Part shown: positions 3,513 through 43,218 of the stretch, piece by piece | Position numbering within the stretch: position 1 is the stretch's first letter | Layout: the number at the start of each line of letters is the position of its first letter | NCBI GenBank assembly: GCA_963746995.1 | Contig: CAVVDF010000006.1 | Span: forward strand, 15,403 to 79,402 | Length of the DNA stretch: 64,000 nucleotides | Direction: 5' to 3' | Source of the DNA: an uncultured Actinomycetes bacterium | GTDB lineage: Bacteria > Actinomycetota > UBA4738 > HRBIN12 | Translations under genes and position numbers: made by a program | The notes under the pieces: generated by a model | What the model saw: only the letters and a program-made list of their open reading frames with translations | What the model was told of the DNA's origin: nothing | The model's database searches: none

Positions 3513-3521
3513 GCGGAGGCG

Positions 3522-4832: not shown

Positions 4833-4944
4833 CGGCGTCCTCCACGGTCAGGGTGACCCGGATAACGTAGCTGCCCGCGTACGCGCCCGCCACCTGCATC
4901 GTGGCCCCCTCACTCCCTCGGCGTCGGCGTGGCAGACTTGCCCC

Positions 4945-11560: not shown

Positions 11561-11631
11561 GCCGGCACCGTACCGGATGCGGGTTCCCGCCCGGGAGGCG
11601 ATCGTGGGAGGATCCTGGGCGGGGGGTTCAG

Positions 11632-13717
11632 ATGGACCAACGTGAGCAGGTGGCGCGCCCGTCGGCCGATGCGGCTGCGGCCACGCACAGGCGTCGTCGG
11701 CCCACGGGCGCACCCCCGCCGCTGCCCAAGCACGTCGGCTTCACCGGTGTGCTCTGGCTCGCCCTGCTGTTGGTGGTGGTGGTGGCCGGCTGCCTCTGGC
11801 TCCGCGCCGATCCCGCGACGCTCGACAGGTTCGACGCGAGGATCACCGACGCCGTCATCTCGATGCGCGCCGGCTGGCTCGACACGCTCGCCCGGAGCCT
11901 GCACTCCGCGGGCTCGCGGGTCGGCCTCGCCGTGTTGGGGCTCGCGCTCGTCGTCGCCGCCTGCTGGTTCCGGCGCTGGCGGCACCTCGTTGTCTGGATC
12001 ATCTGCCTCGCCCTCGCCGGGGCGGCGGTGATGGGACTGACCTTGCTCGCTGAGCGAGCGAGGCCCTTCAGCATTCAGCAACTCGGGGCGTGGGAGGGCT
12101 ACGCGACCCCTTCGATCCCGATCACCGCGATCGCGGTCTGCGCGATCGGCGCGGCGTACATGCTGGTCGTCGCCGGTCGGCCACGCTTCTGGGCGAAGGT
12201 CGCCGTCGCCATCGTCGTCGCGTTGGCGGGCACGTTGCGGATCTATCTCGGCGTCGACCACTTCACCGACGTCGTCTTCGGGGCGATCGTCGCGATCGCC
12301 ATCCCGCTCGCGGGCTTCCGCGCATTCGCTCCCAACGACCTGTACCCGATCTCCTACGGGGCGCGGGGCAAGGCTGCGCACCTGGACGTAACCGGCCGAC
12401 GCGGAGAAGCGATCCGGAACGCGATGCAGGATCAGCTGGGCTACACAGTGCACGACATCAAGCCGGTCGGACTTGGAAGGATCCGGCGGGTCGACGCCCT
12501 TGAAGATGACGGTGACCGACGAGGACGGCCGCGACCGGACGGTCTTCGCCAAGCTCTACGCCAACACCCACGTCCGCGCCGACCGCTGGTACAAGCTCGG
12601 CCGATCCATGTTGTACGGGCGGCTCGAGGACGAGACGCCGTTCAAGACCGTTCGACGGTTCGTGGAGTACGAGGACTACACGCTTCGCCTGCTCGGCGAG
12701 TACGGGTTCTCGACGCCGGCGGCGCTCGGCATCGTCGAGATCACGCCCGAACGCGAGTACCTCATCGCGATGGACTTCTTCGACGACGCCGTCGAGATCG
12801 GCGACGCCGAGGTGGACGACCACGTGATCGACCAGGGCCTCACCATGATCCGGCGGATGTGGGACGTCGGGCTGTCGCATCGAGACATCAAGCCCGCGAA
12901 CCTGATGGTGCAGAATGGCGAGCTGCGGCTGATCGATGTCTTCTTCGTGCAGGTGCGGCCATCGCCGTGGCGACAGGCGGTCGACCTCGGCAACATGATG
13001 CTGGTGCTGGCGCTCCGCTCCGACGCGCACAGGGTCTACGAGGCCGCGTTGCGGTACTTCACACCCGACGAGCTGGCGGAGGCCTTCGCCGCCACGCGCG
13101 GTGTCGCCAGCCCCTCGCAGCTACGCCAACAGATGAAGCAGGACGGTCGGGATCTGCTCGCCGAGTTCCGAACGATGGCACCCGCACGCCGCCCGATCTC
13201 GGTGCAGCGTTGGAGCATCCGACGCATCGCACTGATCCTCGTCACCCTCGTGGTACTGCTACTGGCCGCGTTCACGGGCGTCGCGCTCTTCTTCCCGACC
13301 CGGGGCACCGTGAACTCGCCGACCTGCGGTACCGAGCAGACGATGCAGCTGATGGCCCAAGCGGTGCCGAGCGCGACGCAGCTGCCGTGTGTTTCGAAGC
13401 TACCGCTCGGCTGGGGTGTCGGCACCTCGGAGATCGTTCGGGGGCATGTCCTACTCGCCGTCGGTCTGAGCTCGGGCACTTCCACCGAGGTGACCGTGAC
13501 CTTGACCGAGACGTGCCCCGAGCCGGTGGACGGGACCACGCAGATCCCCTTCGAGGGCGGCTGCGTCACCTACCACTCGTCGATCGATGACGCCACGGTT
13601 CCGTCCTTCGAGCCCGGTGGGGGGCTTTCCTTCGTCCAGCGGGAGGATCTCGTTCGGACCGTGGCCGACGACGAGGAACAGATCCTCTGCGGAGCAGGAG
13701 CTCCGCCCTGCCCGTAA
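11632..13717 (+). pseudogene. PAP2-like membrane domain fused to a protein-kinase-like (Kdo/RIO/APH-like) domain, then a TM helix and a Cys-containing extracytoplasmic tail; one frame break at the junction
   Basis: The PAP2-like part is 11632 to about 12470 (RIYLGVDHFTDVVFGA). The kinase-like part is 12473-13717 (EGSGGSTPLKMTV..., HRDIKPANLMV, IDVFF). The frames join as ...GYTVHDIKPVG|LEGSGGSTPL near 12470. Alternatively these are two separate genes. Confidence 0.5.
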
Positions 13718-13923
13718 CCATCGCCTCACTGAACCTGCCACCGCGATTGCCGCGGCTTTCCTCAACTGCCTGGGGTTCCCGGGACGATACCTCTACCGAA
13801 AAGGGGGTATGGGGGATGAACACGTTGATGTCCAGTGGCGTCAGCATGCCGTCGGGCGGCCGCTCGCCGAGAGGAGCGACGGGATCGGGTCGAACCGGCG
13901 ACGGCACGGCGGTGGTCGGCGAG

Positions 13924-14796
13924 ATGACTCGGCTCGTTCGACATCGTGCGATGGGCACATCGATAGAGGTGCTGGGACCGGCTGGAATGCCGAGGGGGTA
14001 TGAAGCCGTCGCATCGGTGATCCGGCGCTTCGAGGTCGAGGAACAACGGTTCTCGCGGTTCTGCGGCGACAGCGAGCTGTCGAGCGTGAATCGCGCGGCT
14101 GGGCGGCGGACACGGGTCTCGCCGACCTACGCAACCGTGCTGGGGCTGGCACTTGAGGCGGCCCGAACCACCGGCGGTTCGTTCGATCCAACGGTGCACG
14201 ACGCCCTCACAGCGGCGCACGATTGCGGCCCCTTCCGCGAGGATCCGATCGAAGCAGTCGGCACCCTCCAGCCCTTGGTGCCATGTGGTCGCTGGCGCGA
14301 GATCAAGCTGGACGACGACACGGTCCTGCTACCGGAAGGCGTGCACGTGGACTTGGGCGGCATCCTCAAGGGGTGGACGGCTGATCGCGCAGCAGAGGAC
14401 GCGCTCGCGTCTGGCCTGCCATGGGTGCTCGTGAACGCCGGCGGCGACCTGCGGATCGCTGGCGACGCGCCCATGATCGACGTCGGGATCGAGGATCCCC
14501 TACAGGCCTGTGCGGTCGCGCACACCGTTCGGATCTCCGCGGGCGCCGTCGCCACGTCGTCCGTGTCGAAGCGGGCGTGGGGATTCGGCCGCCACCATGT
14601 CATCGATCCGGCAACGGGCGCTCCCGCCGACATCGGGACGATCCAGGCGACGATGTGGGCTCCGACGTGCGCCGAAGCGGAGGTGCGGGCGACCGCGGCG
14701 TTGCTCACGGGCCGCCCGGCGCTTCGATCGACGCCTGGCGTACTGATCTCCGCCACCGAAACAATCGTCTCGTTCCCTGTGGAAACGGCTGCGTAA
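13924..14796 (+). CDS. apbE: FAD:protein FMN transferase (ApbE family)
   Basis: 290 aa from ATG 13924. ApbE-type segments (GGSFDPT, GGILKGW, HHVIDPATG). Confidence 0.75.
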   Translation: MTRLVRHRAMGTSIEVLGPAGMPRGYEAVASVIRRFEVEEQRFSRFCGDSELSSVNRAAGRRTRVSPTYATVLGLALEAARTTGGSFDPTVHDALTAAHDCGPFREDPIEAVGTLQPLVPCGRWREIKLDDDTVLLPEGVHVDLGGILKGWTADRAAEDALASGLPWVLVNAGGDLRIAGDAPMIDVGIEDPLQACAVAHTVRISAGAVATSSVSKRAWGFGRHHVIDPATGAPADIGTIQATMWAPTCAEAEVRATAALLTGRPALRSTPGVLISATETIVSFPVETAA

Positions 14797-14970
14797 GGTG
14801 CGAGCCTAGCGACGATCGTCCGGCAAGCCGCCGACCGGGGGACAGGGGTCAAGGTCGAGCTTGAGTTCGAGCCGGATCTCTCGCTCCGGTCGATCGTGGT
14901 CAACGCCGGCTGTCCGGAACGCTGTCGGCGCGCTAGGTTCGATCCCGGACCCACACCCGGGAGGACTCGT

Positions 14971-26430: not shown

Positions 26431-27513
26431 ATGGACGCAGCAGAGCTGCTTCGGTATGCGGTCGAACGGCGCGCCAGCGACGTCCACATCAAGGCCGGCA
26501 GCGTGCCCTTCATCCGGGTCGACGGCGAGTTGCTGCCCGCCCCGTTCCCGGAGGTGACACCGACCGAAGCACGTCAGATGGCCGATGCGCTGATGCCGCC
26601 GCACAAGGCGGAGGAGTTCTCGCGAACGCGCGAAGCCGACTTCGCGTACACGGCCGAAGGCATCGGACGATTCCGCGTGAACGTGCTTCGGCAATCGGAC
26701 ACCGTCGGTCTGGCGATCCGATGGGTGAGCCCGGAGGATCTGACATTCGACGAACTCGGACTCCCAGCGGCGATCGGAGGGTTGGCCGACGCCCGGCGAG
26801 GCCTGATCCTCGTCACGGGCCCGACCGGAGCCGGCAAGACGACGACGATCGCGACACTGCTCGGGTTCGTCAACCGGACCCGCCGAGCGCACATCGTCAC
26901 GATCGAGGACCCGATCGAGGTCGTATTCACCGATGCGATGTCCGTGATCCGCCAGCGCGAGGTGGGTCGCGACACCGAGTCGTACGCGACCGCGCTACGC
27001 CAGTCGTTGCGGCAGGACCCTGACGTGATCTTCCTCGGAGAGATCCGCGATCACGAGACCGCGCTGGCGGCCATCCAAGCTGCACAGACCGGGCATCTCG
27101 TGATGTCGACAATGCACACGATCGACGCGGCCGAGACGATCTCGCGGATCGTGGAGATGTTCCCGCCGGAGCAGCAACAGCAGATGCGCGTGTCGGTGGC
27201 AGGGGCGCTCCGCGGCGTGGTGTCGCAGCGCTTGCTCGAGCGTGCCGACGGGCGCGGCCGGGTGCCCGCCGTCGAGATAATGCTGAACACTGGCCGGATC
27301 TACGACCGGATCTTGGACCCCGACCTGGAGCCGTCGATCCACGAGGTGATCGCCGAGAGCCGATTCGACGGGATGCAGACGTTCGACCAGTCGCTCCTCG
27401 ACCTCGTACGCGACGGGCTCGTGACCTCGGAGGACGCGCGCGCGGTGGCCACCAACCCCCACGACTTTAGCCTCGCGCTCGCCACCACGGCGGCCGGGAG
27501 TGGGGATGGATAG
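26431..27513 (+). CDS. pilT: PilT-family type IV pilus retraction ATPase-like protein
   Basis: 360 aa. Walker A GPTGAGKTT, aspartate box IVTIEDPIE, and His box HLVMSTMHT. Confidence 0.8.
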   Translation: MDAAELLRYAVERRASDVHIKAGSVPFIRVDGELLPAPFPEVTPTEARQMADALMPPHKAEEFSRTREADFAYTAEGIGRFRVNVLRQSDTVGLAIRWVSPEDLTFDELGLPAAIGGLADARRGLILVTGPTGAGKTTTIATLLGFVNRTRRAHIVTIEDPIEVVFTDAMSVIRQREVGRDTESYATALRQSLRQDPDVIFLGEIRDHETALAAIQAAQTGHLVMSTMHTIDAAETISRIVEMFPPEQQQQMRVSVAGALRGVVSQRLLERADGRGRVPAVEIMLNTGRIYDRILDPDLEPSIHEVIAESRFDGMQTFDQSLLDLVRDGLVTSEDARAVATNPHDFSLALATTAAGSGDG

Positions 27514-30500
27514 CGCAGGCACCGCGACCGCACCCCCCGTCACCTACCCCGTGTTCGGCGCGGTCGCACTCGGGATCACGGGTCGGTCGGTCTACGACGT
27601 GATCGAGCAGGTGGGTGGCATGTTTGAGTCAGTGGGCGCGGTCTTCGAGGGGTCGCCCGATGCGCCCGGCACCCTGATCGCCCTCCTGCCGCCCTCTGAG
27701 GACGCCGCGATCCGCGCCGCCAGGATGGCGTTGCAGGCGCAGGCCGTGGCTCCGGCTCTTCGGATCGGGGTGGATGCGACCCAGGTCCGCGCGAAGAAGG
27801 AACAGGACGCGAGATGGCAGCAGGTGATCGACAGCGCGGTCCGGCTCCAGAAGGCGGCGCGCACGGGCGAGTCGATCGCGGGCGACGCTATCCGCGACCT
27901 CTCGGCCGGTGGCGCCGCGACGCAAGCGCTCGCGGTCGGCGAGGAGACGTTCCTCCTGCTCACCGGTGTCAGCGACGAGGTCGCCGCACCGCGGGCTGTG
28001 CCAACGGCTGCGGTCGCGCCCGCTGTCCCGATGCCCGAGCCTGCCGCCGCTCCGGCCGAAGCCGAACCGCTCCCGCCCCAGACCGCACGTGCGCCCGGCC
28101 AACCGCAGACGGCACCCGACGTCACCCCGGTTGCCGCCGACGACCCCGAGCCGGTCCCGATCCCTGTCCTCGAACAACCGGTCGCCGATTCGCCGTCCTC
28201 CGAGGTCCAGCCGAACGCCGGAACCGCAGCCGGAGGCGCGCCGCCTGTGATGAACCCCGCCGTTCGGTTCGCAGGTCCGTTGATCGGGCGCGAGCAGCAG
28301 CTGGCGGACCTGCGAGGTCGGTTCGACCGTGTCGTCACGGACCGCGCCGCCGCGTGTGTGGTGGTGACAGGCGAGCCCGGTGTCGGTCGGACGAGGCTGG
28401 CCGAGGAGCTCCTGCAGACCAGCGGAGCTGACGTTCGCCGATTCCGGGTCGGCTGCCTCCCCGTCGACGACGGTGGGGCGCGCTGGCCGCTGGCCGCGCT
28501 GATCGAGGCCTGCACCGACGTCTCACCGACCGACCCTCCCGCGCAGGTGCAGGAACGACTCGCCGCCCACCTCGCCGACGCACCCGACGCCGAGCGACTC
28601 ATCTCGGAGCTGCTCGCTATGCAGGCGCTGGACGGCCGCCTCCAGACCGACGATGTGCGTTGGGCCATCCGCCGGCTCCTCGAGGTCTCGGTCGGTGACG
28701 AACCGACGATCCTCGTGATCGAGGACGCCGACCGGCCCGGCGCTGGCTTCATACGGCTGCTGGCAGATGTGGTGGCCGTGATGCGCGACAGCGCGTTGCT
28801 GGTGGTGCTCACCGCCGTCCGAGAGTCGGAGGCTGTGCCGGCGATCCGGCTCGCGCCACTTCCGCCGACCGAAGCCGCGGCGCTCGTCCGAAGCCTCCTC
28901 GGTGCCGTCGACCCCGGTGTGGACGATGCGATCGCCGCGCGAACGAGCGGTTCGCCGTTCGACATCGAGCAGACGCTCGCGGTCCTCACCGAAACGGGCG
29001 CGCTCGCGCCGGGGCAGGGAACCTGGATGCCGCTCGCGGACATGCGGAGCGTGCCGCTCCCCGACGGGCCGACAGGACTCGTGCGCAGGCGGCTTCAAAC
29101 GTTGCACCCGCATGCGCTCGCCGTGCTCGGCATGGCGGCCGTCGTCGGCGAGATCGTTCAGCCCGCGAGCCTGCTCGAGATCATCCCGCCCGACGCGCGC
29201 GGAACGATGCCCGGGCACCTCACCACCCTCGTCGACCGCGGCCTCCTGGTCGACGTCGGCGATGGCGAGTATCGATTCCGGCATGCACTCGTGCGCGCGG
29301 CAACGACCGGCGGCGTGCCGGCATGGGCGCAGGCGATGGCGCACCTCCGGGTCGCCCGCGACCTCGAGATCGGCGCCGGGGACCGGCTCTGGCGTGTCGC
29401 CGATCGCGTCGGTGGACATCTCGCAGCCGCCTGCGCACGCACGCCGGATCCGCCGACGAGCGACCGCGACGACGCCCTCGAGCTCTTGACGTGGGCGGCA
29501 GCTGCAGCGGTCGAGCACGGTGACCTCGACGGCGCAGCCCGCCTCGAGTACCTGTCCGCGAGCCTCGTCGATCACGACCCGGTCCGCCGGGCCGAGCTGC
29601 TGTACCTGGCTGCGGAGCACGGCGCAACGGCGGCGCCGGAACGGCCCGCCGACCGTGAGATCGCCGAGGCCGCCCTCGCGGCCTCCGTCGCCGGCGACGA
29701 CGTGGATTGGCGAGTGCGGCTCTTGCGAGCCCGGCTCCGCACCACAGCCGGACATGAGGACGCACTCGAGGGCGCTCGGGCGACTGCCGACGACGCGATC
29801 GCCGCGTTCGACGACGATGCCTTGAGCTGGGCGCTCGCGTCGGCGTGGGCGCTCCGCGGGCTCGTGCACGCGGCACGGGCACAGAACGGCATGGTCGCCG
29901 ACGACCTCGCTCGAGCCGCCGACAACGCCGCGGCGGCGGGGCGCTGGCGCGAAGAGACCGCGGCGCTCCGCGGCGCCGCTGCGGCGTTGCTCGACGGACC
30001 CGCCGGCGTCGAGGACGCGGAGGCACGGTGTCGGGGATTCCTCGGACGCGTCCGCGGCCCGCTCGCCGAGCACGACCTGCGGGGTGCGATCGCGCTCCTG
30101 CAAGCGCGCCGCGCGGCGTTCGACGAGGCGCGGGCAACGATCGCGGGATCCGCCGCGGCGCTCGAAGAACTCGGGGCTGCGGCAGACCTCGCCGTGCTGC
30201 TGCGCCGAAGCGCGGAGATCGAAACCCTCGCCGGCGAGGGCCCGGCCGCGGAGCTCCAGATGCAACGAGCGATGGCGGCCGTCACGAACGCGCGCGATGA
30301 ACGCCTGCGAGCGGAGATCGCCGGTGCGTTCGCGCATCTGCTCGCGGCGGACGACGACCGACTCGACGAAGCGCTCGCGCTCGCCGACGTCGCCGAGACC
30401 CACGCCGGCGGGATCGCGGCTCAGGTCGCCTGGCGCATGGCGCGGGCACGCGTGATGGTGCGGCGCGGTCGGGGCGCCCACGCCGAGCGCCTCGTACGCG

Positions 30501-31216
30501 AAGGGCTCAGCCTTGCGGAGCAGACCGACTCAACCGACCTGCGCGCCAACACGCTTGTGCATACGGGTGACGTGCGACGGTTCGCCGGCCGACCGGCGGA
30601 GGCCGAGCCGTTCGAACGTCGCGCGCTGCGTCTCTTCGAGCGTCGCGGGGCGACCGCGCAGGCCGATGCCGTGAGAGCCGTCGTGCGCCCGGCCGAGACC
30701 CCCGAGCCCATGGAGGATCCGCCGACCCACACGGCCGAGCCGTCGGGGCCCACGGCGGCTGATCCGGGCCCCGAGCGCGCGTCACACGATGCGGGCTACA
30801 CGGTGGCCGACGACCTGATGGCACTCACGATGGCCACACCGGACCCTGAACGAGGCCGATGGAGCCGGACACGAGTCCGGCTCCATCGAGACGCCCTCCC
30901 TGGGATCCACGCCCGGCGCGGAGGCCGAGTCGCAGCGTCGCTGGTTCAGCCGCTGACCGGTGGGGGCGGCACCTCATCGTCGGGCGGCGTCGGGGGACCC
31001 ACCGGCGCGCCCGGGACCATGTCGGCCACGGACCGATGCTTGCCGGATTCCGTCTCGACCCTCTCGACGACGGCGTCGAGGGCTTTCTTCGCCGACCCCA
31101 TGCCCTTGTCGCTGCCGCCCCCACCGGCGAACGTCTTCATCAGGGTCGCGGCGAGCCCGTCGAGCGAGCCGCCGTTACTCCCGGTGACGAGCACCTCCGG
31201 CACGACGGTCACGTGA
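27500..31216 (+). CDS. large STAND-type NTPase with a degenerate N-terminal class III adenylate/guanylate cyclase-like domain, an AAA (NB-ARC-like) domain and a helical/TPR-like C-terminal region; the 3' end is uncertain
   Basis: The start (GTG 27500 or ATG 27506) overlaps the pilT stop. A cyclase-like segment (LRIGVDATQV...GDAIRDL) lacks the metal-binding Asp residues. The P-loop is VVVTGEPGVGRTRLAEEL. A long Ala/Leu-rich helical region follows. The last roughly 90 codons (30946-31216) overlap the flotillin gene on the opposite strand, so the true C-terminus may be about 30950. Confidence 0.6.
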   Translation: MGMDSAGTATAPPVTYPVFGAVALGITGRSVYDVIEQVGGMFESVGAVFEGSPDAPGTLIALLPPSEDAAIRAARMALQAQAVAPALRIGVDATQVRAKKEQDARWQQVIDSAVRLQKAARTGESIAGDAIRDLSAGGAATQALAVGEETFLLLTGVSDEVAAPRAVPTAAVAPAVPMPEPAAAPAEAEPLPPQTARAPGQPQTAPDVTPVAADDPEPVPIPVLEQPVADSPSSEVQPNAGTAAGGAPPVMNPAVRFAGPLIGREQQLADLRGRFDRVVTDRAAACVVVTGEPGVGRTRLAEELLQTSGADVRRFRVGCLPVDDGGARWPLAALIEACTDVSPTDPPAQVQERLAAHLADAPDAERLISELLAMQALDGRLQTDDVRWAIRRLLEVSVGDEPTILVIEDADRPGAGFIRLLADVVAVMRDSALLVVLTAVRESEAVPAIRLAPLPPTEAAALVRSLLGAVDPGVDDAIAARTSGSPFDIEQTLAVLTETGALAPGQGTWMPLADMRSVPLPDGPTGLVRRRLQTLHPHALAVLGMAAVVGEIVQPASLLEIIPPDARGTMPGHLTTLVDRGLLVDVGDGEYRFRHALVRAATTGGVPAWAQAMAHLRVARDLEIGAGDRLWRVADRVGGHLAAACARTPDPPTSDRDDALELLTWAAAAAVEHGDLDGAARLEYLSASLVDHDPVRRAELLYLAAEHGATAAPERPADREIAEAALAASVAGDDVDWRVRLLRARLRTTAGHEDALEGARATADDAIAAFDDDALSWALASAWALRGLVHAARAQNGMVADDLARAADNAAAAGRWREETAALRGAAAALLDGPAGVEDAEARCRGFLGRVRGPLAEHDLRGAIALLQARRAAFDEARATIAGSAAALEELGAAADLAVLLRRSAEIETLAGEGPAAELQMQRAMAAVTNARDERLRAEIAGAFAHLLAADDDRLDEALALADVAETHAGGIAAQVAWRMARARVMVRRGRGAHAERLVREGLSLAEQTDSTDLRANTLVHTGDVRRFAGRPAEAEPFERRALRLFERRGATAQADAVRAVVRPAETPEPMEDPPTHTAEPSGPTAADPGPERASHDAGYTVADDLMALTMATPDPERGRWSRTRVRLHRDALPGIHARRGGRVAASLVQPLTGGGGTSSSGGVGGPTGAPGTMSATDRCLPDSVSTLSTTASRAFFADPMPLSLPPPPANVFIRVAASPSSEPPLLPVTSTSGTTVT

Positions 31217-33045
31217 CCGTCACTGACGGCCTGGGCGATGGCGACAACCGCGGTGGCACCCGAGCCAAGCGCGTCGGTCTGCGCCTCGTAGCCGACGGCG
31301 CGGGCGAGCCCCTGCGCCTCGATCGCCGAGCTTCCGCGACACCGATCGCCTGCGTCCTGGCGGCCTCCGCCTCACCGGTCATGCGGGTGAAGTTCGCCTG
31401 ACCCTCGGCCTCCGCCGTCCGCGCCGCCGCATTGTTCTTCTGCACGTCCACGTCGACCTGCGCGCGGGCCAGCGCGAACTGCATGTCGGCCGTGCCCTTC
31501 GCCTTCTCGACGTCGATCCGGGCATGCTGCGCCTCCTGCTCGCGCGCGAAGGTCGCCGCTGCTGGACCGCGAGCTCGCGCGCCGACAGCACCTCGACGAG
31601 TGCATCCGGCAGCACGACGTCTTGGATGTACACACCCTTGGTCTCGACGTTGTACTTGCCCAGGTACTCGGTTATGTAGCGCTCGGCCTTGTCCTGCACC
31701 TCCTGGCGTGTCTCGATGAACTGCACCGCCGGCAGTCCCTGCAGCGTGTTGCGGAAGTAGTTGCCGACCGCCGACTGCAGCACCTCGTTCACGAGGTTCA
31801 GCATCGTGCCCACCATCGAGATCACGCGGGGCGCCTGTGTGTCGGGCACGTGGATCTGCACCTGCAGGTCGATCAGGAACGAGAAGCCTTCGCGGCTCTT
31901 CGCGTCGATCGACGACAGTTGCGCATCGAGCGCGTGTGCGTGCGAGGTCGCCTCTGCCCAGTTCAAGGTGAGGATCGCCGTCGGGACGACCTCCGCCTGA
32001 TACACGCGCGGGTTGATCGCGTACTTGCCGGTGCGCAACGGCTCCGACCAGATCCCTCGGTGCCCCGGGTGCACGATCGAGCCGAACTTGAAGGCCTCGC
32101 CGCTCGTATCCTCCGTCGACAACCCGAGGAACGACTTCACGACCGCCACCTCGCCCTGGTTCACCACGAGCATCGGCACGCGTTCGACCTTCACCAGGAA
32201 CGGGTTGAGCAGGTAGGCGCCGTACAGCAGCGGGTCGTGTTGCAGTCCGATCTTGCCGCCGTTGTCCAAGAACGCCTGGAAGTCCTGGTAGTTGTTGTGC
32301 AGCCGGTTCTTCGAGCCGAGCAGCACGTCGATGATCTCGGCGTCGCTTCGCCCCTCCGATTCCATCTGCAGGATGTCGTCGGAACCACCGAGCCGTCCGG
32401 CGATGTCGCCCGACGGGAGCGGATCACCCTCCTGCGTGGTGACGATCCCGACGTAGTCCTGCCCGCCCTCAGGGGCGATCCGCACGACCTGCAGGTCGGA
32501 GGCCGACAGACCGAACGACTCATAGGACAGCCCGCTCGTTTGCGTGATCCCCAGCACGTCGGGCGAGACCGGCAGCCCGAAGGACTGCACATAGGTCAGC
32601 ACGAGGAAGCCGATCGGATGCATCGGGACCAACGACCCGGGGGAAGCACCGGCCGCTGCACGCCCTGCTGGCCGCCCAGTTCCACGAATGCGCGTACGTT
32701 GTCGAAGTTGCCGAATTCGGGCTTGTAGACGGCGCTCTTCGCGCCGGCCGGCAACGCGTGGCCGATCTGTGCGAGGACGACGCCGATCCCATCCGCCGGC
32801 ACCTGCACCCAGGGGTACTTCTTCACCGAGTACAGCAGTGCCGGACGGAAGCGCAGCCCCGGCATCAACAGGTTCGCCTGGTAGCCGGCTTCCCGCTTGA
32901 AGGCGATCACGTGGCCTTCCCTGAGGCGCCGACCCAGCCGCTTGGCGACGAGTCCTACCTCCGTCGGGCCGATGTAGCTGAACGACGCCAGCACGTAGAG
33001 GATCACCAACGCGACCACGATGATCGTGATCAGTGAGGAACTCAT
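30946..33045 (-). pseudogene. flotillin / SPFH (band 7) family protein (YqiK/FloT-like); reading frame broken three times
   Basis: Start ATG 33045 (MSSSLITIIVVALVILYVL...). The gene is reconstructed from ORFs 32596-33132, 31379-32632, 31209-31484 and 30946-31212. Frame switches fall near 32600-32630, 31551-31562 and 31327-31337. The flotillin C-terminal region EAEGQANFTR...VVPEVLVTG is present. Confidence 0.7.
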
Positions 33046-33194
33046 CTCCCGCACGCTCCTTCCGCAGATGTTGCGGTCTTGTGACGATTCGCCATGCCCT
33101 GCCTCGGCGGTTCTATCCGAAGACACTCGCACGGAACGTTCCTGAGCGCGACCGCGCGCTCAAGGAAGTACCGTCCGTCGGCCGATAGGAGGAC

Positions 33195-33845
33195 ATGCTG
33201 CAATCATCCCGCCTCCGCCTGATCCTTGCCGTCGTCGCCGTTGCCCTCGTTTTGGGCGCCGGGAGCGCCCTTGCCGCCAGTGGCGACGATGTCACCGTCG
33301 CTGATCCGTGCCCGTCGATCGAGCCGTCTCTTGAGCCGTCCGTTGAGCCGTCCGTTGAGCCGTCCGTTGAGCCGTCGGTCGACGCATCCGTGGAGCCCTC
33401 CGTCGAGCCATCGGAGGAGGGAACGACCGATGGGTCCGAGGATCCAGGCGAATGCTCGGATCCGAGCGAGGCGCCCGAGCCGAGCGAGAACCCCGATTCT
33501 GGCGAGGCAGTAGATCCCACAACCGCTCCTGAACCCGACGCCGAGCGCACGGCGGCCTGCTTCGACGCCGCGAAGGTCGATCCCGAGGCCGAGCCGACCA
33601 CCGAGAAGGTGACCGGTCTCGACAACGCGATCCAGCACGTGCTCGACAACTGCATCAAGAACCCGCAGGCCCCTGGCCTCCTGAACGCTCTCGAACACCT
33701 GCGCGCGAACCAGGAACGGCACGCTGTGCAGCAGGCAGCCAAGGCAGAGCGGACTGCTTCGAGGGCGGCGGCGAAAGCCGCGCGCGACGCAGCGAAAGCG
33801 GCGGGCGAGCACGGCAACAGCGGCGAGCACGGGAACAGCCACTAG
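33195..33845 (+). CDS. secreted low-complexity protein with (V/L)EPS tandem repeats
   Basis: AGGAGGA RBS, then ATG 33195. Signal peptide. Eight 12-nt repeats encode EPSL/EPSV units. Acidic Pro/Glu-rich region and an Ala/Lys-rich C-terminus. Confidence 0.6.
   Translation: MLQSSRLRLILAVVAVALVLGAGSALAASGDDVTVADPCPSIEPSLEPSVEPSVEPSVEPSVDASVEPSVEPSEEGTTDGSEDPGECSDPSEAPEPSENPDSGEAVDPTTAPEPDAERTAACFDAAKVDPEAEPTTEKVTGLDNAIQHVLDNCIKNPQAPGLLNALEHLRANQERHAVQQAAKAERTASRAAAKAARDAAKAAGEHGNSGEHGNSH
33321..33416 (+). repeat. 8 x 12-bp tandem repeat (consensus gagccgtccgtt) inside the EPSV-repeat gene
   Basis: The copies are gagccgtctctt, then gagccgtccgtt x3, then gagccgtcggtc, gacgcatccgtg, gagccctccgtc and gagccatcggag. 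Confidence 0.7.
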
Positions 33846-33916: not shown

Positions 33917-35045
33917 ATGGATGTCGCGATCGTCGGCGGCGGCGTGATCGGCCTCGCGTGCGCGAACGCGCTCGCCGAGGCGGGTGTTGACGTCTGCGTC
34001 CTCGAGGCTGCGGACGCGACCGGCCAAGGGTCCTCGGCGCGCGCCAACGGCGGCTTCCGAGCGCAATTCACCACGACGAGCAACATCGCGTTCTCCCGTT
34101 ACTCGATCGAGGCATTCGAGGCGATGCCCGCCGAGCAGATCGGGCTGCACCAGACCGGGTACCTCCTCGTCACTTCGACCCGACAAGGCGAGCGGTCGTT
34201 GCGGGCTGCAGTCGACCTCCAACGGGGTCTCGGCGTCGATACAGCATGGCTCGATCCCGATGCGATCCGTGCGCGCGCCCCGTTCATGCGGATGGACGGC
34301 GTGCGCGCGGGCAGCTTCCACGCGCGCGATGGATTCCTGGATCCGGCCGGTATCTGCCAGGTGTACGCGCATTCGGCACTCCGACACGGCGCCGCGCTCC
34401 GCACGGCTGCCGCCGTCACCGCGATCGAGCGATCGGCCCGAGGCTTCACCGTGCATGCGGGACGAGACGGGGTCCGCGCCGACCTCATCGTGAACGCAGC
34501 CGGAGCCGATGCCCGTTCCATCGCTCTCCTTGCCGGATCCGACCTGCCGGTCGAGCCGGTGCGGCGGAACCTCGCCCACGTCCACGACGTGCCAGGGCCG
34601 CTGACGCCGATGGTCGTCGACCTCGAGAGCGGCGTGCTCGTTCGCCGGGAGCCCGGCGGCGGCTGGGTGCTCGCCTACGCGAACCCCGCCGACCCCCCCG
34701 GCCGCGCCACGACGGTGGATCCGCGGTTCCTCGGAGACCTTGCTGAACGACTGCCCGTCCGGTTCCCCTTCCTCGTCGACCTGCCGATCGACCCGCGCCA
34801 GTGCTGGGCGGGGTTGTACCCGGAAACGCCCGATCACCACGCGATCATCGGCGCAGACCCCGCGGTGCCGGGGTTGCTGCACGCAGCGGGCTTCGGGGGC
34901 CATGGGGTGATGCACGCGCCCGCCGCCGGGCGGGCGATCGCCGACCTCGTGCTGACCGGTTCGAGCACCACGTTCGACCTGCGCCCGCTTGCGGCCGTCC
35001 CGGTTCGCCGAGGACGACCTGATCGTCGAGACCTCAGTGTTCTGA
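33917..35045 (+). pseudogene. FAD-dependent oxidoreductase (DAO family; sarcosine-oxidase-beta/glycine-oxidase-like); one frame break near the 3' end
   Basis: The N-terminus VAIVGGGVIGLACA is a dinucleotide-binding motif. The conserved C-terminal motif HAAGFGGHGVMHAPAAG is present. The family-typical end RPSRFAEDDLIVETSVF* lies in frame 0 and stops at 35043-35045, whereas the main ORF is in frame 2. The switch is at about 34985-34995. Confidence 0.7.
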
Positions 35046-35051
35046 AACCGT

Positions 35052-36301
35052 CTAGAAACGGCCGGGCGAGAACGGCGCGAGATCCACGCCGGCGTCGCCG
35101 TCGGTCAGAAGCCGAGTCACGAGCTGCCCGGTGATAGGTGCAAGCGTGACCCCGAGCATGTTGTGCCCGGTCGCGACCACCACGCGTGGATGGCCGGGAA
35201 CCGGTCCGATGATCGGGAGACCGTCGGGCGTGACCGGGCGCGGCCCGACCCATTCGTTCGTCCGGTCATGGAGATCAACCGCGCGGAGGAACGGAGCGGT
35301 CGCACGAACGATGGCGTCGATCCGGCGGCCGGTTGAAGCGATCCATCGTCCCGTCGAACTCCATCGTGCCGGCGACGCGCAGGCGATCGGGGTAGGGCGT
35401 GAGCATCACGTGCGCGTCCGGCAGATGCAGCACGTGATCGGGCAGTCGGTCCGGCCGCACCTCGAAGCTGTACCCCTTGCCCGGGTACAACGGGAGCTTG
35501 ATACCGAGCGGCGTGACGAGCTCGCGCGTCCAGGCGCCCGCCGACGACCACCACGCGGTCGGCGTCGACCGAGCCGAGCGCTGCGTCGATCTCGATCCCG
35601 TCCCCGAGATCCACGACGCGCCGCACGGCGCACGACGTGTGGATCACCACTCCCGCGGCGGCGAGCGACGTGGTCAGCTCGTCAACCAACACGCCTGCGT
35701 CGATCCACCGTTCCCCAGGCAGCAGGAAGCCGGCGACGACGCGTTCGGAGACGAGCGGCTCGATCGCGCGGACGGTCGCGCCGTCGAGGATCGGACCCGG
35801 CGGCCGGCACGCGCCCAGCGACGCCATCCTCTCGATGTGCGCGCGTTCCGACGCAGCACCATCGGCCGTCGCGTGCAGGGTGAGGTAGCCGTCGAGACGC
35901 GCGCTCGAGCCGATCCCGGCCTCGGCCATCGCGTCGTAGGCCGCGGTCACCCCACGTGCCAGCGCGACCATGGCGAGAAGACCGCGCTCGAAGGCGGCAG
36001 GCGTCGCTGCCTGCGTGAACCGTCGGATGAACCCGGCCATCCGCGGCATGACCGACGGGTGCACGTGCAGCGCCGCATCCGGGCGCCCAAGGTCGCGCAG
36101 CACGGCACGGACGGCGTCGGGTCCGGCCAACGGCTGGGTCATCGACGGGCAGATCGCGCCGGCGTTCCCACGAGAGGCGCCCGCCCCCGTCCGGTCGGCG
36201 GCCTCGAGGATCGTCACGTCGACGCCGGCACGACAGAGGAACCACGCGCACGACAACCCCACGATCCCCCCGCCGATCACCACGACGCGCTTGCGTGGCA
36301 T
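35052..36301 (-). pseudogene. FAD-dependent oxidoreductase (D-amino-acid dehydrogenase DadA-like); reading frame broken twice
   Basis: N-terminus VVVIGGGIVGLSCA. The middle segment PLYPGKGYSFEV... is in ORF 35275-35490. The C-terminus ...HNMLGVTLAPITGQLV...FSPGRF* stops at 35052-35054. Frame switches fall near 35530-35545 and 35322-35334. Confidence 0.7.
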
Positions 36302-38391: not shown

Positions 38392-41300
38392 CTAGTTCGC
38401 GAGCGACCGGATCTGCCGCAGGGCCACCGTCACCTGGCTGAGATCCCCGACCCCCTCCAGCTTGAGACCGTGCAAGAACCGCCGGACGCGCTCGGTCGCT
38501 TGCTCGTGTTCGGCGAAGTACCGCTCGACCGCCTCATCGATCGGCGCGCCCCCGGCAGACTCCAGCACGCGCTCGCAGAGACGCCGCCGCAGCGAGAACA
38601 GATCGTCCTCCATCGACTGCTGCGCCCACCGCTGCCACCGCGTGCTCGCCGGGAGTTGTTCGAGTTGCGCCTCGAGCCAGTCGATGTCGAGCCGCTCGCC
38701 GAGCACGAAGAAGCCGCGCGCGACCTCCAGAGGGGGGCGGCCGGTCGCGTGCGCCACCGCGATGATGTCGGGCGCGTGCACTAACTCCGGCTGGAAGGCG
38801 TGCCGATGCGCCACCGACTCGGGTACGCCCTCGGCGACCAATCGCCGGGCGGCGTGCTCGTGCTCCTCGCGCCACACGTCGGGACCGATCTGGCTGATCG
38901 CGTCGGAGACCTCCGAGAAGGACGCGCGCGCCATCTCGACAGCGTCGGCAAGCCGGGTCCCTGCCCCCTGGACCAAGTACCAGCGTGACGTGGTCTCGAC
39001 GAGCCAGTCCACGCCGCTCATCAACTCGGACTGGACCGCCGGGTCGATCAAGCCGTCGAGGGCCTCGACGTCGGACCAGCGCCCGACGGCCCCGGTGATG
39101 TCCCGCGCGATCCGGAACGCCTTGATCACGTCCGCCGCCGCGGAGCCGGTTTCCGTGATCATCCGCGACACGAACGTGATGCCTTGGGAGTTCACGACGT
39201 CGTTCGCGGCGATCGTCGCGATGATCTCGCGCTTCAATGGGTGGTCGGCAAGCAAGTGCCCGAACCGGCCGACGATCTTCGGCGGGAAGTACCGTGCCAG
39301 ATCGGCGGCCAGGTACTCGGTGTCGGGCAGGTCGGAGGCCAGCAGCGCCGCGTAGACCTGGCGCTTCGCGTAGGCGAGGAGGACCGCCAACTCCGGTCGC
39401 GTCATCCCCCGGCCGGCTGCGCGCCGCTCGCCCATCTCGTCGGCCGCGGGCAGGAACTCCACTTCGCGCTCGAGCTCGCCGTCCGCCTCGAGCTGCTGCA
39501 TCAATTCCTCGTAGGACTCGATCCGTTGTGCGGAGACCTCCTCTTCCTGCGACAGGATCTGCGCTTGCAGGTAGTTGTCGTACAAGACGTGCTGCACGAC
39601 ATCGGGCGCGCAGTCCTGCAGGAGCTCGTTGCGACCGTCGAGCGTGAGCTCGCCACGCTGGACGGCCAATCCGAGCAGGATCTTCCAGTTCACCTCGTGG
39701 TCTGAGGTGTCGACGCCGGCGGAGTTGTCGATGAAATCCGTGTTGATCCGGCCGCCCGCGGACGCGTACTCGATCCGTCCGCGCTGCGTGCACCCGAGGT
39801 TGCCGCCCTCGCCCACCACTCGCGCTCGCAGCTGGGCGCCATTCACCCGCACCGCGTCGTTCGTCCGGTCCCCGACATCACTCTGCGTCTCGCGCGTCCC
39901 CTTCACATACGTGCCGATCCCGCCGTTCCACAGCAGGTCGACCGGCGCCTGCAAGATCGCTCGGATCAGCTGGTCGGGGGTCATCTCGTCGGGAGCGTCG
40001 TCGGCGATCCCGAGCGCGGTGCGCACCTCCTTCGACGGGGTGACGGCCTTGGCCTTGCGGTCGAGGATCGCACCCCCCGGCGAGAGCCGCGACGGGTCGT
40101 AGTCCGCCCACGACGATCCCGGCAGGGCGTACAGCCGCCGGCGTTCCGCGAAGGAGGCAACCGGATCGGGATCGGGGTCGAGGAATACATTGCGGTGGTC
40201 GAAGGCAGCGACGAGTCGCACGGTCTCGGTGTAGAGCATGCCGTTCCCGAATACATCACCGGACATATCGCCGATGCCCACACACGTGAACGGATCGCGC
40301 AGCACGTCCACACCGAGCTCGCGGAAATGACGCTTCACTGACTCCCAGGCGCCGCGTGCGGTGATGCCGAGCGCCTTGTGGTCGTAGCCGGCGCTACCGC
40401 CGGAGGCGAAGGCGTCCCCGAGCCAGAACCCGTATTCCTCGCTCACCCCGTTCGCCGTGTCCGAGAAGGCGGCGGTGCCTTTGTCCGCCGCGACGACCAG
40501 GTACGGGTCGTCACCGTCGAGCACTCGGACACCCTCGGGGTGTTGCACGAGGCCCTGCACGAGGTTGTCGGTCACGTCGAGCAAGCCCCGCATGAAGGTC
40601 ACGTACTGCGTGGCCACCTCCTGTTTCAACTCCGCCGGCGTCGAGGTCGGGCGCTTGAGGATGAACCCTCCCTTGGACCCGTCGGGCACGATGACCGCGT
40701 TCTTCACCTTCTGGGCCTTCATGAGGCCGAGCACCTCGGTGCGATAGTCCTCCTTACGATCCGACCACCGGATCCCGCCGCGCGCGACCATGCCACCGCG
40801 CAAGTGGATCGCTTCCATCTGCGAGGAGTACACGAAGATCTCGACCAGCGGGAACGGTTTCGGCATCTCCGGGACGATGGCCGACCGGATCTTCAGCGCG
40901 AGCGCCGGGCGGTCGGAGAGATAGGCGTTCGTCCGGACGGTCGCGAGGATCGTGCCAAGCATCGAGCGCAGGATCAGATCCTGGTCGAGGGACGCAACCG
41001 CTTTGAGGTCCTCGCGGATCTGCTGCCGGATCGCCTCCGCGTCGGAGCCGGGCTGTGCACGGATCGGGTCGAACTTCGCCTCGAACAACTCGGAGAGCCG
41101 CCGCGCGATATGCGGGTGCTCGGCGAGCGCGTCGTTCCGGTACTCCTCGGTGAATCGGGTCGAAACTCGCATCCGGTACTTGCGATACGCGCGCAGGATG
41201 TGCACCTGGTGCCACGACAATCCGGCGAAGATCACGAGGCGGTTCAACGAATCGACCTCGGCGTCGCCGCGCCACATCGCGGTCAGGGCATCTTGCACGA

Positions 41301-43218
41301 GGTCGTCCTCGGCTTCGAGGTTCAACACGGCGCCGCGCGCGTCGAGGACGCCGAAATCATGGACGTAGACACGGCCCTCGCCGTGCAGCGCGATCGGGAT
41401 CTCCTCGACCGCCCGCAATCCGAGGGACTCGAGTAACGGCATGAAGGCCGACAGATCGACCTTGCCGCCCGTCTTATACAGCTTCACACGCGTGAGCCGC
41501 TCGCCGACGCTCTCGTTCGCGATCCCGATCACGAACCCGTCGGTTTCCGACGACAGTTGCTCGAGCCGCTCGACATCCAACGCGACCTGTGCCCAATCGG
41601 TCTCGGTCGTCTTGTAGTAGTCGGGGAAGCGTGGCCCGTACTGCGCCGCGAGCTGCGGTCCGCGTTCGGATCCAAGACGCGCGGTCATCTCGTCGAGGAG
41701 ATCGTCCTCCCACGTCCGCGCGAGGCGCTCGACCTCCTCTTCCAGCTCCTCGTACGGGATCTCGGGGATCTGTCTGCCCTGCTCGACGTGAACGGTGAAG
41801 AAGATCTTCGCGGACTCGGTCTCCCCGAGCGACAGGTGGTAGTCGATCGACGTGCCCTCGAACCGAGCCAAGAACATGTCTTGCAGGCGTTTGCGGAGCG
41901 TCGCGCTGAACCGCTCCCGCGGGAGCGCCACCACGATCGACACCTGCCGGCCGAACAGATCCTTGCGCACAAGCACACGGATCCCGCCGTGCTTCTCCAG
42001 CTGCAGCAGGCCGACGACGAGCATGCGGAGCTCCTCGGTCGGCGCCTGAAAGAGCTCGTCGCGAGGGAAGGACTCGAAAAGCTCGACCGTCTCCTTGTAG
42101 TCGTGCGAGCCGGGGATCAGATCTTCGGCCACGATGATCTGCTCCAGCTTGTGGTGCAGCAGCGGCGTCTTCGACGCCGGCTCCATGTAGGCCTTCGACG
42201 TGAACAGCCCGATCAGCCGGGCCTCCCCGATAACTTGCCCCTCGGCGGAGACCATGCGCACGCCGACGTAGTCCATCCGGGCACGGCGGTGCACCGTGCT
42301 GTAGGCCTTCGTCTTCGTGATCACCAGTAGGTCGCCCTGCTCGATGCGCCGTCGGACATCGGGCGCGAGGCTGTCGAGCGGCGTTGCGTCTGCGAACGCG
42401 CTCATCGAGACGTCGGACAGGATGCCGAGACCCGAGCCGGGCACCGCCAGGATCACGCGACCCTCCGGACGCTCTTCGATCCGGTACTCGCGATAGCCGA
42501 GCAAGACGAAGTTCAACTGCAGCAGCCAATCCACGAAGTCGACCGTCTCGCCGACCTCCTGTGGGGAGTACGAGACCGTCGCCTGCCGGGCCAGCTCCGC
42601 CATGTGCCGCACCCGCTCTTGCATCGGCTCGAAGTCCCGGACGACGAGCCGCACGTCGTGCAGGATCGCCCGGATCCGCCCTTCGAGTTCCTCGCGATCG
42701 CGCTCCGAGAGTCGCCGGTCAAGCTCGAAGTGCATCAGGGACTCCCGATGCGAGGCGTCACGGCTCGCCAGCACACGCTCGAGGTGGCCGTCCTCGGCGC
42801 GGTGGGTGCCGATCATCGGGTGCAACAGCATCCGCACGGAGAGGTTCCGGGCGTTCAGCTCTTCGGTCACCGAATCGACCAGGAAGGGCGAGTCGTCGGT
42901 ATTCGTCTCGATCACCGTCCCGGGCACGTCGTAGCCGTCGGCGTCGATCGTTGGCACGAACACGCGCACAACCGCGGGGTGATTCCCGCGGGCATCGACG
43001 AACCGGAAGGCCGACAGGACTGTGCCAAGAAGGTCTGCAACGGAGCGTGACTCGAGTTCCTCGACGCTCAGCCGCCGCAGGAACATGCGGGCGAACGTGA
43101 GGAGAGCGTCCCGGCGATCCGGCGGTGCGCCCGATTCGATCTCGGCGACGAGTGCGGCGAGGGTGGGGTGGGTAGCGGTCTGAATGGTCTCTGCGGGCTG
43201 CGCAGCCGGGTCGGACAC
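38392..43218 (-). CDS. gdh: NAD-specific glutamate dehydrogenase, large (about 1600 aa) GdhB/Gdh4 type
   Basis: Single intact 1609-aa reading frame from GTG 43218. It is collinear with the large NAD-GDH family: N-terminal ACT-like regions, a central GDH catalytic core (GGIRWSDR, KGGFIL), and a long C-terminal domain. Confidence 0.85.
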   Translation of the reverse strand: MSDPAAQPAETIQTATHPTLAALVAEIESGAPPDRRDALLTFARMFLRRLSVEELESRSVADLLGTVLSAFRFVDARGNHPAVVRVFVPTIDADGYDVPGTVIETNTDDSPFLVDSVTEELNARNLSVRMLLHPMIGTHRAEDGHLERVLASRDASHRESLMHFELDRRLSERDREELEGRIRAILHDVRLVVRDFEPMQERVRHMAELARQATVSYSPQEVGETVDFVDWLLQLNFVLLGYREYRIEERPEGRVILAVPGSGLGILSDVSMSAFADATPLDSLAPDVRRRIEQGDLLVITKTKAYSTVHRRARMDYVGVRMVSAEGQVIGEARLIGLFTSKAYMEPASKTPLLHHKLEQIIVAEDLIPGSHDYKETVELFESFPRDELFQAPTEELRMLVVGLLQLEKHGGIRVLVRKDLFGRQVSIVVALPRERFSATLRKRLQDMFLARFEGTSIDYHLSLGETESAKIFFTVHVEQGRQIPEIPYEELEEEVERLARTWEDDLLDEMTARLGSERGPQLAAQYGPRFPDYYKTTETDWAQVALDVERLEQLSSETDGFVIGIANESVGERLTRVKLYKTGGKVDLSAFMPLLESLGLRAVEEIPIALHGEGRVYVHDFGVLDARGAVLNLEAEDDLVQDALTAMWRGDAEVDSLNRLVIFAGLSWHQVHILRAYRKYRMRVSTRFTEEYRNDALAEHPHIARRLSELFEAKFDPIRAQPGSDAEAIRQQIREDLKAVASLDQDLILRSMLGTILATVRTNAYLSDRPALALKIRSAIVPEMPKPFPLVEIFVYSSQMEAIHLRGGMVARGGIRWSDRKEDYRTEVLGLMKAQKVKNAVIVPDGSKGGFILKRPTSTPAELKQEVATQYVTFMRGLLDVTDNLVQGLVQHPEGVRVLDGDDPYLVVAADKGTAAFSDTANGVSEEYGFWLGDAFASGGSAGYDHKALGITARGAWESVKRHFRELGVDVLRDPFTCVGIGDMSGDVFGNGMLYTETVRLVAAFDHRNVFLDPDPDPVASFAERRRLYALPGSSWADYDPSRLSPGGAILDRKAKAVTPSKEVRTALGIADDAPDEMTPDQLIRAILQAPVDLLWNGGIGTYVKGTRETQSDVGDRTNDAVRVNGAQLRARVVGEGGNLGCTQRGRIEYASAGGRINTDFIDNSAGVDTSDHEVNWKILLGLAVQRGELTLDGRNELLQDCAPDVVQHVLYDNYLQAQILSQEEEVSAQRIESYEELMQQLEADGELEREVEFLPAADEMGERRAAGRGMTRPELAVLLAYAKRQVYAALLASDLPDTEYLAADLARYFPPKIVGRFGHLLADHPLKREIIATIAANDVVNSQGITFVSRMITETGSAAADVIKAFRIARDITGAVGRWSDVEALDGLIDPAVQSELMSGVDWLVETTSRWYLVQGAGTRLADAVEMARASFSEVSDAISQIGPDVWREEHEHAARRLVAEGVPESVAHRHAFQPELVHAPDIIAVAHATGRPPLEVARGFFVLGERLDIDWLEAQLEQLPASTRWQRWAQQSMEDDLFSLRRRLCERVLESAGGAPIDEAVERYFAEHEQATERVRRFLHGLKLEGVGDLSQVTVALRQIRSLAN

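Follow-up and report, generated by a model that had tools for sequence, protein, structure and literature searches.

A gene pair of uncultured Actinomycetota encoding a PilT/PilU-family ATPase paralog and a STAND protein with a putative pseudo-cyclase head

Results

Two adjacent genes on the plus strand

We analysed 64,000 nucleotides (the window) of a metagenome-assembled genome (MAG) from an uncultured Actinomycetes bacterium of the UBA4738/HRBIN12 lineage (assembly GCA_963746995.1, contig CAVVDF010000006.1, positions 15,403 to 79,402 of the forward strand). The present work concerns two adjacent genes of this window, the first encoding a PilT-like ATPase (PilT1) and the second a large protein of the STAND class of NTPases, referred to below as the STAND partner (Table 1). 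Since the G+C content of the window is about 69%, spurious open reading frames (ORFs) are plentiful, and genes were therefore called by their codon-position GC. A first-pass annotation, made from the sequence alone, had suggested that the two genes could form a signalling or conflict system rather than part of a pilus.

Table 1. Features of the gene pair and other entries of the window (window positions; aa, residues of the respective protein).
Feature	Position	Strand	Basis or remark
PilT/PilU-family hexameric ATPase paralog, 360 aa	26431..27513	+	TIGR01420, PF00437
ATPase Walker A GPTGAGKTT, aa 130-138	26818-26844	+	translation
ATPase Asp box EDPIE	26905-26919	+	translation
ATPase Walker B DPDVIFLGEIRD	27016-27051	+	translation
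ATPase His box TGHLVMSTMHT	27088-27120	+	translation
GRIYDRILD replacing PilT AIRNLIRE	27292..27318	+	alignment
GGGAG Shine-Dalgarno	~27495-27499	+	upstream of STAND ATG
8-nt stop/start overlap ATGGATAG	27506..27513	+	ATPase TAG 27511-27513, STAND ATG 27506
STAND partner, corrected extent	27506..30956	+	frame 0 to ~30830-30930, then +1 frame, stop 30954-30956
Putative pseudo-cyclase domain, aa 12-156	27539..27973	+	class III cyclase fold; metal-Asp positions Ala19 and Ser50, Asn position Asp109
Pro/Ala-rich linker, aa 157-255	27974..28270	+	length and sequence vary among orthologs; dN/dS ~0.45
AAA_16 P-loop NTPase, helical arm and winged helix, aa 258-601	28277..29308	+	PF13191, AlphaFold 2/Foldseek
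STAND Walker A GEPGVGRT	28370-28393	+	Lys replaced by Arg
STAND Walker B ILVIEDADR	28709-28735	+	hhhhDD present
TPR-like helical repeat array, aa 606-1060	29321..30685	+	AlphaFold 2
Disordered acidic/Pro-rich tail ending RRWF[NS]R	30686..30956	+	low pLDDT; motif 30936-30953, +1 frame
Read-through tail, outside the gene	30957..31216	+	antisense to 3' part of converging flotillin-like gene
Broken-looking genes	1977-2699, 56158-57435, 59042-60073		domain fragments/fusions

The ATPase is a PilT/PilU-family paralog without AIRNLIRE

The first gene encodes a complete ATPase of the PilT family. Its product scored 424.7 bits against TIGR01420 (pilT_fam, PilT/PilU family type 4a pilus ATPase; cutoff 319.1), with residues 4–345 covered by a model of 343 positions, and 168 bits (E 2.9e-49) against PF00437. 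All four core motifs (26818..27120) are intact, from which the enzyme is predicted to be catalytically competent. As judged by its sequence, however, it is a non-canonical paralog. Canonical actinobacterial PilT reads AVRNLIRE and the PilT proteins of P. aeruginosa and Aquifex read AIRNLIRE at the position where, according to the alignment, the window ATPase has GRIYDRILD. AIRNLIRE was found in none of the 120 closest homologs of the ATPase; 54 of these carry GR[IVL]xDR[IVL]LD and 55 more R[IV]xERI[LV][DH]. Among 120 homologs of the canonical actinobacterial PilT paralog, 115 contain A[IV]RNLIRE. Nor is the gene adjoined by pilB or pilC, there being no pil genes in the window. The closest relative in the PDB was the PilT structure 5fl3 (352 bits), which reads YVRELLKD and also lacks AIRNLIRE, while the PilU structure 9n32 scored 257 bits, below the PilT structures.

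The AIRNLIRE motif is kept in PilT and missing in PilU, and it has been modelled at the interface between PilT and PilC (PMC6762196; bioRxiv 10.1101/2025.10.30.685630). Because this PilC-facing motif is replaced by a conserved motif of its own, the window ATPase would probably not be the primary retraction ATPase but a motor with an accessory or alternative role. The ATPase is well conserved, with 85–92% identity within the clade of close relatives to which the window belongs (the window clade) and a ratio of nonsynonymous to synonymous substitutions (dN/dS) of about 0.1. It should be underlined that this and the following dN/dS values (Nei-Gojobori, against four orthologs) are rough, as dS was about 1, which is near saturation.

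The two genes overlap by 8 nt, and the STAND start codon is preceded by a Shine-Dalgarno sequence (Table 1). Overlaps of the form ATGnnTAG/TAA/TGA are common to the window clade and to the related loci L041 and L043, whereas the junction is a 4-nt overlap in L021 and L046 and a gap of 1–2 nt in L003 and L020. With such junctions the two genes are predicted to be translationally coupled and to form one operonic unit.

The STAND partner carries a degenerate class III cyclase head

With regard to the partner, several lines of comparison assign its N-terminal ~160 residues to the class III cyclase fold. Alignment by hhalign of a profile of the orthologs to a profile of the active paralog cyclases gave a probability of 89% (E 2e-6), and the ortholog profile searched against PDB sequences matched nucleotide cyclases and nothing else (E 0.4–0.6). 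When the AlphaFold 2 model of this domain (pLDDT 86) was compared with the PDB by Foldseek, each of the 50 best matches was a class III cyclase, Rv1625c ranking first (E 9e-6, TM 0.62). The Pfam cyclase family PF00211 was not matched at E≤0.1. Ala19 and Ser50 replace both metal-binding Asp residues and an Asp replaces the transition-state Asn, the Arg being retained, so that the cyclase head is, as far as its residues indicate, catalytically dead. With a dN/dS of about 0.19 it is nevertheless one of the two regions of the protein under the strongest constraint. Such a pattern is expected of an enzyme head that has turned into a binding module.

The only Pfam match in the partner was AAA_16 (PF13191; residues 258–434, E 3.4e-15). 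A competent Walker A of the type GxxxxGK[ST] is lacking in the window protein, in which the Lys is replaced by Arg. The same Arg is found in 27 of 31 close orthologs, and L041 has Thr; the Lys is retained in the deeper lineages with an upstream PilT paralog (PilT-linked lineages), as it is in each of the 45 paralogs whose motif could be recognised. The NTPase and winged-helix part is the least constrained folded part (dN/dS ~0.37), which fits with the Walker A substitution. The Lys to Arg exchange suggests that the partner in the window clade may now be a nucleotide-bound scaffold instead of a hydrolysing switch. The TPR array, which comprises about 25 paired helices modelled at pLDDT >90, showed a dN/dS of about 0.18, and matches to TPR_12 and TPR_MalT were found in orthologs.

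The AlphaFold 2 model of residues 245–1127 (pLDDT 91, pTM 0.87) consists of a P-loop domain, a helical arm, a winged helix, TPR-like helices and a disordered tail. Its best Foldseek match was the STAND-TPR protein 6mfv (E 3.5e-13), followed by Avs3 in second place and by Apaf-1, plant NLRs, Cdc6/Orc1 and MalT. According to the model, the partner thus has the architecture of a STAND protein. No helix-turn-helix (HTH) domain of the LuxR- or SARP-type regulators (Rv0386-like, AfsR-like; GerE or Trans_reg_C+BTAD) was found by Pfam in the window partner or its orthologs, nor is there any in the AlphaFold 2 model. The TOMM kinase/cyclase model TIGR03903 reached 114.1 bits against a cutoff of 705.75, and this match was restricted to the NTPase region (residues 257–644). 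The first-pass annotation had thus read the two genes largely correctly, including the complete ATPase ending at 27513, the overlap, the cyclase-like domain without catalytic Asp residues, the P-loop domain, the long helical repeat region and the lack of an HTH.

The pair is conserved across different genomic contexts

Loci containing the pair were collected from a gene index (2 contexts), from GTDB (13 loci) and from metagenomes. Evaluable loci with a partner at least 33% identical to that of the window were L001-L004, L006-L027, L033, L036, L041, L043, L046 and L047, and each of them has a PilT paralog gene immediately 5' of the partner gene and in the same orientation. Across the paired loci the ATPase is 70–92% and the partner 33–65% identical to the window proteins. 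About 30 orthologs of the partner are 55–65% identical, all of them from uncultured Actinomycetota. The 13 GTDB loci come from a scan of genome contigs with patterns for the N-terminal domain, which yielded 13 close orthologs, all in MAGs of uncultured Actinomycetes or Actinomycetota and none in a cultured host. This type of N-terminal domain is rare, being found in 14 of 1.84 billion cluster representatives at E≤1e-30.

Within the window clade the whole neighbourhood is syntenic from MAG to MAG and the locus has been inherited vertically, so that the pairing seen there proves little by itself. The more distant members are more informative. Its surroundings fall into at least seven different contexts (examples in Table 2), in which the pair is the only element that does not change, and at each junction there is either a stop/start overlap or a gap of 1–2 nt. 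As far as gene order can tell, we consider these distant members with different flanks decisive for the pair being a real unit. The synteny check proposed in the first-pass annotation thus came out in favour of the pair.

Table 2. Distant loci carrying the pair (identities to the window proteins; last column, STAND proteins with an N-terminal zinc ribbon, in locus coordinates).
Locus	ATPase identity	Partner identity	Upstream	Downstream	Zinc-ribbon STAND protein
L003/L047	70%	34%	MoxR-DUF58-transglutaminase	che operon	
L020	75%		rpsF-ssb-rpsR-rplI	dnaB	11115-14942
L021	70%		che operon	pilB-pilT-pilC	11095-14358
L041	78%	45%	TMEM175	DAO	
L043	77%	38%		EEP nuclease + MttB	
L046	70%	34%	PD40 protein		1868-5506

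The paralogs of the partner gave a different picture. In about 17 evaluable loci with a STAND protein 28–31% identical to that of the window, no ATPase gene was found upstream, and 16 of 17 paralogs have an intact cyclase (215–307 bits, with FxDxxGST, KFIGD and N..R present). The PilT-linked partners, in contrast, scored 62, 46, 33 or 0 bits against the cyclase hidden Markov model and lack the metal-binding Asp. Because the paralogs with an intact cyclase have no upstream ATPase, the association with the ATPase appears specific to the subfamily with the degenerate cyclase. The deeper PilT-linked STAND proteins have an N-terminal zinc ribbon (DZR/Zn_Ribbon) in front of the degenerate cyclase, which has been lost in the window clade.

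A literature survey that included full-text searching returned no report of an obligate pairing between a PilT paralog without AIRNLIRE and a pseudo-cyclase STAND protein. In agreement with the earlier remark that a PilT-type ATPase joined to a STAND sensor is not a described module, the two-gene unit appears to be undescribed, both proteins being drawn from known superfamilies.

Pilus and chemosensory genes next to the pair in relatives

The genes of L021 are arranged as aroE, a che operon in reverse orientation, a gene for a 454-aa protein, PilT1, STAND, pilB, pilT2 (with AVRNLIRE), pilC and three pilin genes. The usual order in related MAGs (L102-L106) is aroE, a small gene and then pilB-pilT-pilC-pilins-pilD-pilM-pilO. 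Comparison with this usual aroE-pil order places the che/pair block of L021 inside a type IVa pilus locus. In L003 and L047 a gene for a homolog of the small che-side protein of L021 comes after the pair, with a full che operon behind it. Canonical type IVa pilus clusters are widespread in related uncultured Actinomycetota.

The small che-side protein (L003:13136-13936, L021:8504-9868, L047 ~12554) has a conserved N-terminal domain of about 100 residues and a long Pro-rich tail. A relationship to Roadblock/LC7 was considered and is kept as a lead only, since there was no Pfam match and the PDB profile comparison to Robl/LC7/MglC gave E 0.3–1.2.

The 3' end of the STAND gene and the surrounding genes

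The large ORF had originally been taken to extend to 31216. The STAND protein is indeed present, but its true stop ends at 30956 in the +1 frame, as indicated by the C-terminus of the orthologs. These terminate in ...EESKRRWFNR*, and the window equivalent, TPGAEAESQRRWFSR, is found in the +1 frame. The C-terminal motif AEAESQRRWFSR is likewise in the +1 frame, and the frameshift lies within 30800-30956. Moreover, 30957-31216 is conserved in no ortholog, and the codon-position GC pattern shifts at about 30900. Judged against the orthologs, the annotated ORF reaches 31216 only by reading through a frameshift, and this is not where the gene ends. An assembly indel in long-read data is the likeliest cause, because other genes of the window look broken and pilB is in three pieces in a MAG seemingly from the same survey; a real mutation is less likely. 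The truncated or fused-looking genes (Table 1) include a Glyco_hydro_9 fragment, an ORF combining KARI_N, KARI_C and an HMGL-like start, and fragments of a TPP enzyme, and they suggest indels of the long-read MAG assembly or pseudogenes.

On the minus strand, the ORF 30946..31371 has a GC content of 0.87 at third codon positions (GC3). The adjacent Band_7/flotillin-like gene (31379..32632, minus strand) seems to run, past a frameshift at ~31375-31420, into this ORF, which by eye has a flotillin-like Ala/Glu-rich C-terminus and has no Pfam match. The sole terminator-like hairpin between 25.3 and 33.2 kb is located at 31061-31082 on the plus strand, about 100 nt 3' of the corrected STAND stop, and it carries no weight, as one such hairpin was found against 2.0 expected by chance. 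Overall, the promoter/terminator scan and the Rfam scan gave nothing above chance. Directly 3' of the STAND gene, L001 and L002 encode a secreted protein that is rich in Pro/Ser/Thr and contains HGNSG repeats. Its window ortholog is displaced to 33195..33845 (plus strand), the flotillin-like gene and a 152-aa ORF (31379-33054, minus strand) being inserted before it. The HGNSG protein was rejected as a third conserved partner, as it is unrelated to the gene 3' of the pair in L003.

The neighbours of the pair in the window are housekeeping genes encoding a peptide ABC transporter, an aminotransferase, an M43 peptidase, a flotillin, DAO oxidoreductases, an NAD-specific glutamate dehydrogenase and a MetH-like protein. 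The FAD-dependent DAO-family oxidoreductases are encoded by convergent, slightly overlapping genes (33917-35134, plus strand, and 35117-36301, minus strand), and DAO genes flank the pair in L019 and L041 too. The NAD-specific glutamate dehydrogenase (38392-43218, minus strand; 1608 aa) has the full set of ACT and helical-motif domains, and its gene belongs to a block syntenic with L001, L002 and L019. Further away, a 365-aa protein (7338-8435, minus strand) combines an NYN ribonuclease domain with an OST-HTH/LOTUS domain.

Discussion

Our preferred reading is that the pair encodes an accessory or alternative type IVa pilus (or motility) motor together with a dedicated STAND scaffold or regulator, to which we would assign a probability of roughly 0.55. 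The first protein would be a PilT-like hexamer other than the primary retraction ATPase. The second would derive from the actinobacterial (Zn-ribbon)-cyclase-AAA_16-TPR family, its head having lost catalysis. The TPR array might sense a ligand or a partner protein, in relatives perhaps the output of the neighbouring chemosensory pathway, and the NTPase/winged-helix module would set the oligomeric state. The pseudo-cyclase head, possibly together with the C-terminal RRWF peptide, could then be the surface on which the PilT-like hexamer docks and by which it is recruited, sequestered or gated. In this way the retraction of type IVa pili, or twitching, would be tuned. We infer that the two proteins interact physically, and likewise the surface involved, the signal and the pilus as target in the window organism.

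Two precedents from M. xanthus are relevant in this respect. PilU, a PilT paralog, is encoded away from the pil clusters and yet acts in retraction (PMC13584747), and the large TPR protein SgmX controls the ATPase of type IV pili (PMC7519303, PMC7668184). Several observations weigh against our reading. Neither pil nor che genes are present anywhere in the 64-kb window, and among the contexts of the pair (at least seven) pil genes adjoin it in one, with che genes in two lineages. The pair was not nearby in three of four related type IVa pilus clusters inspected (L102, L103-105, L106). Adjacency to pil genes is the exception. In addition, the Walker A Lys to Arg exchange and the 3' frameshift could also mean decay in the window lineage, against which purifying selection argues.

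A pilus-independent signalling role is a serious rival, although we consider it doubtful. Here the STAND protein would sense a cue and act through the PilT-like hexamer, or the roles would be reversed, and the hexamer would drive a different process, for instance the remodelling of another membrane platform or of a nucleic-acid or protein substrate, any link to pil and che genes being secondary. Five of about seven contexts have no pil or che genes adjoining the pair, another motif stands in place of the one modelled at the PilC interface (bioRxiv 10.1101/2025.10.30.685630), and the tiny N-domain subfamily described above suggests a specialised function. On the other hand, the pair in L021 lies between a che operon and pilB inside a type IVa pilus cluster, such clusters are widespread in related uncultured Actinomycetota, and a PilU-like accessory role needs no adjacency. 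To our knowledge, moreover, characterised proteins of the PilT/PilU family act on type IV filament machines. The suggestion in the first-pass annotation that the pair is not part of a pilus is consequently weakened by its pil adjacency in L021 and by the che operons in L003/L047, whereas its observation that the window has no adjacent pil operon stands.

A bolder idea, which we regard as rather unlikely, is that a STAND protein whose cyclase head has turned into a docking module directly templates or gates a hexameric ATPase of the secretion superfamily, converting a signal into mechanical output. This might even occur independently of the canonical pilus platform, since the PilC-facing motif is replaced. 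If true, it would be the first STAND protein with a PilT-like motor as its output.

It is very unlikely that the pair is a decaying relic without specific role in the window lineage. The dead cyclase, the Walker A exchange, the 3' frameshift and the lack of pil genes nearby would all agree with decay, but all folded domains show purifying selection, which is most pronounced in the TPR array and in the supposedly dead cyclase head. Moreover, the Arg variant is common to 27 of 31 orthologs and must therefore be old and tolerated, and the frameshift is confined to the disordered tail and resembles the other broken genes of this long-read MAG assembly.

The conflict system envisaged in the first-pass annotation, an anti-phage device of the NLR/Avs type in which the STAND protein senses an invader and triggers the ATPase as toxic effector, has very little to recommend it: Avs proteins have the same STAND/NLR-like architecture, Avs3 is the second-best structural match and a repurposed enzyme fold occupies the N-terminal effector position, but the neighbourhood is of housekeeping type and syntenic across many MAGs, with no integrases, defence genes or visible GC anomaly at the locus within the window, the ATPase is, with its low dN/dS and high identity in the clade, unlike fast-evolving defence effectors, and the search of PADLOC-DB v2 gave no meaningful match (mad8 27 bits, mad3 21 bits, PDC-S73 14 bits), only short P-loop stretches at E 7e-7 to 8e-3.

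Under the accessory-motor reading the pair bears on several questions. Accessory PilT paralogs are common and their control is poorly understood, and here one of them comes with a dedicated partner that is predicted to be translationally coupled to it. The combination of sensor repeats, an oligomerisation module and a dead-enzyme head suggests a testable mechanism of pilus-motor control in monoderm Actinomycetota, in which type IV pilus biology has been little explored. The pair also offers an evolutionary case: the effector domain of its STAND protein has degenerated step by step (62, 46, 33 and 0 bits) and yet stays highly constrained.

Among known systems, the ATPase most resembles PilU and other PilT paralogs without AIRNLIRE (9n32, 5fl3), with which it shares the TIGR01420 family, intact ATPase motifs and the missing AIRNLIRE; as with PilU, a window-type ATPase coexists with canonical PilT in the relative L021. 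A further mark of PilU is a C-terminal extension of its own, which contacts PilT. PilU depends on PilT to reach the machine (bioRxiv 10.1101/2025.10.30.685630). However, the window ATPase is not an ortholog of proteobacterial PilU, as judged by its scores of 257 bits to 9n32 and 352 bits to 5fl3, and it carries its own conserved GR[IV]x[DE]RILD. Its gene does not lie beside pilT and is obligately paired with a STAND gene of ~1100 codons, for which there is no counterpart in reports on PilU.

The partner has the same domain order as the actinobacterial class III cyclase-AAA_16-TPR proteins, which occur with or without LuxR or SARP domains, and it is 28–31% identical to them over the NTPase-TPR region. 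Examples are the M. tuberculosis proteins Rv0386, Rv1358 and Rv2488c, in which a cyclase homology domain (CHD) is combined with LuxR (PMC3466318). The N-terminal zinc ribbon is common to the cyclase-AAA_16-TPR proteins and the deeper PilT-linked members. The window protein differs from this family in its apparently dead head, in having no HTH of any kind and in the Walker A Arg of its clade, while the RRWF motif and the upstream PilT paralog are missing from the ~17 paralog loci.

The likeness to SgmX, which activates type IV pili via PilB (PMC7519303, PMC7668184, PMC9811614), is one of functional analogy only: a large TPR protein dedicated to a type IV pilus motor ATPase and tied to polarity or chemosensory control. 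No homology is shown. SgmX has neither a P-loop NTPase nor a cyclase fold, its target is the extension ATPase, and there is no ATPase gene to which it is translationally coupled. Finally, by structure the partner shares the NTPase-arm-winged helix-repeat sensor architecture of MalT, Apaf-1 and the bacterial NLR-like STAND proteins (6mfv, 8bob, 3shf, 8dgc). It differs from these in that its effector is a putative pseudo-enzyme and its P-loop Lys is substituted, and in that it would act through the partner ATPase, where the others have transcription, a caspase or a nuclease as their output.

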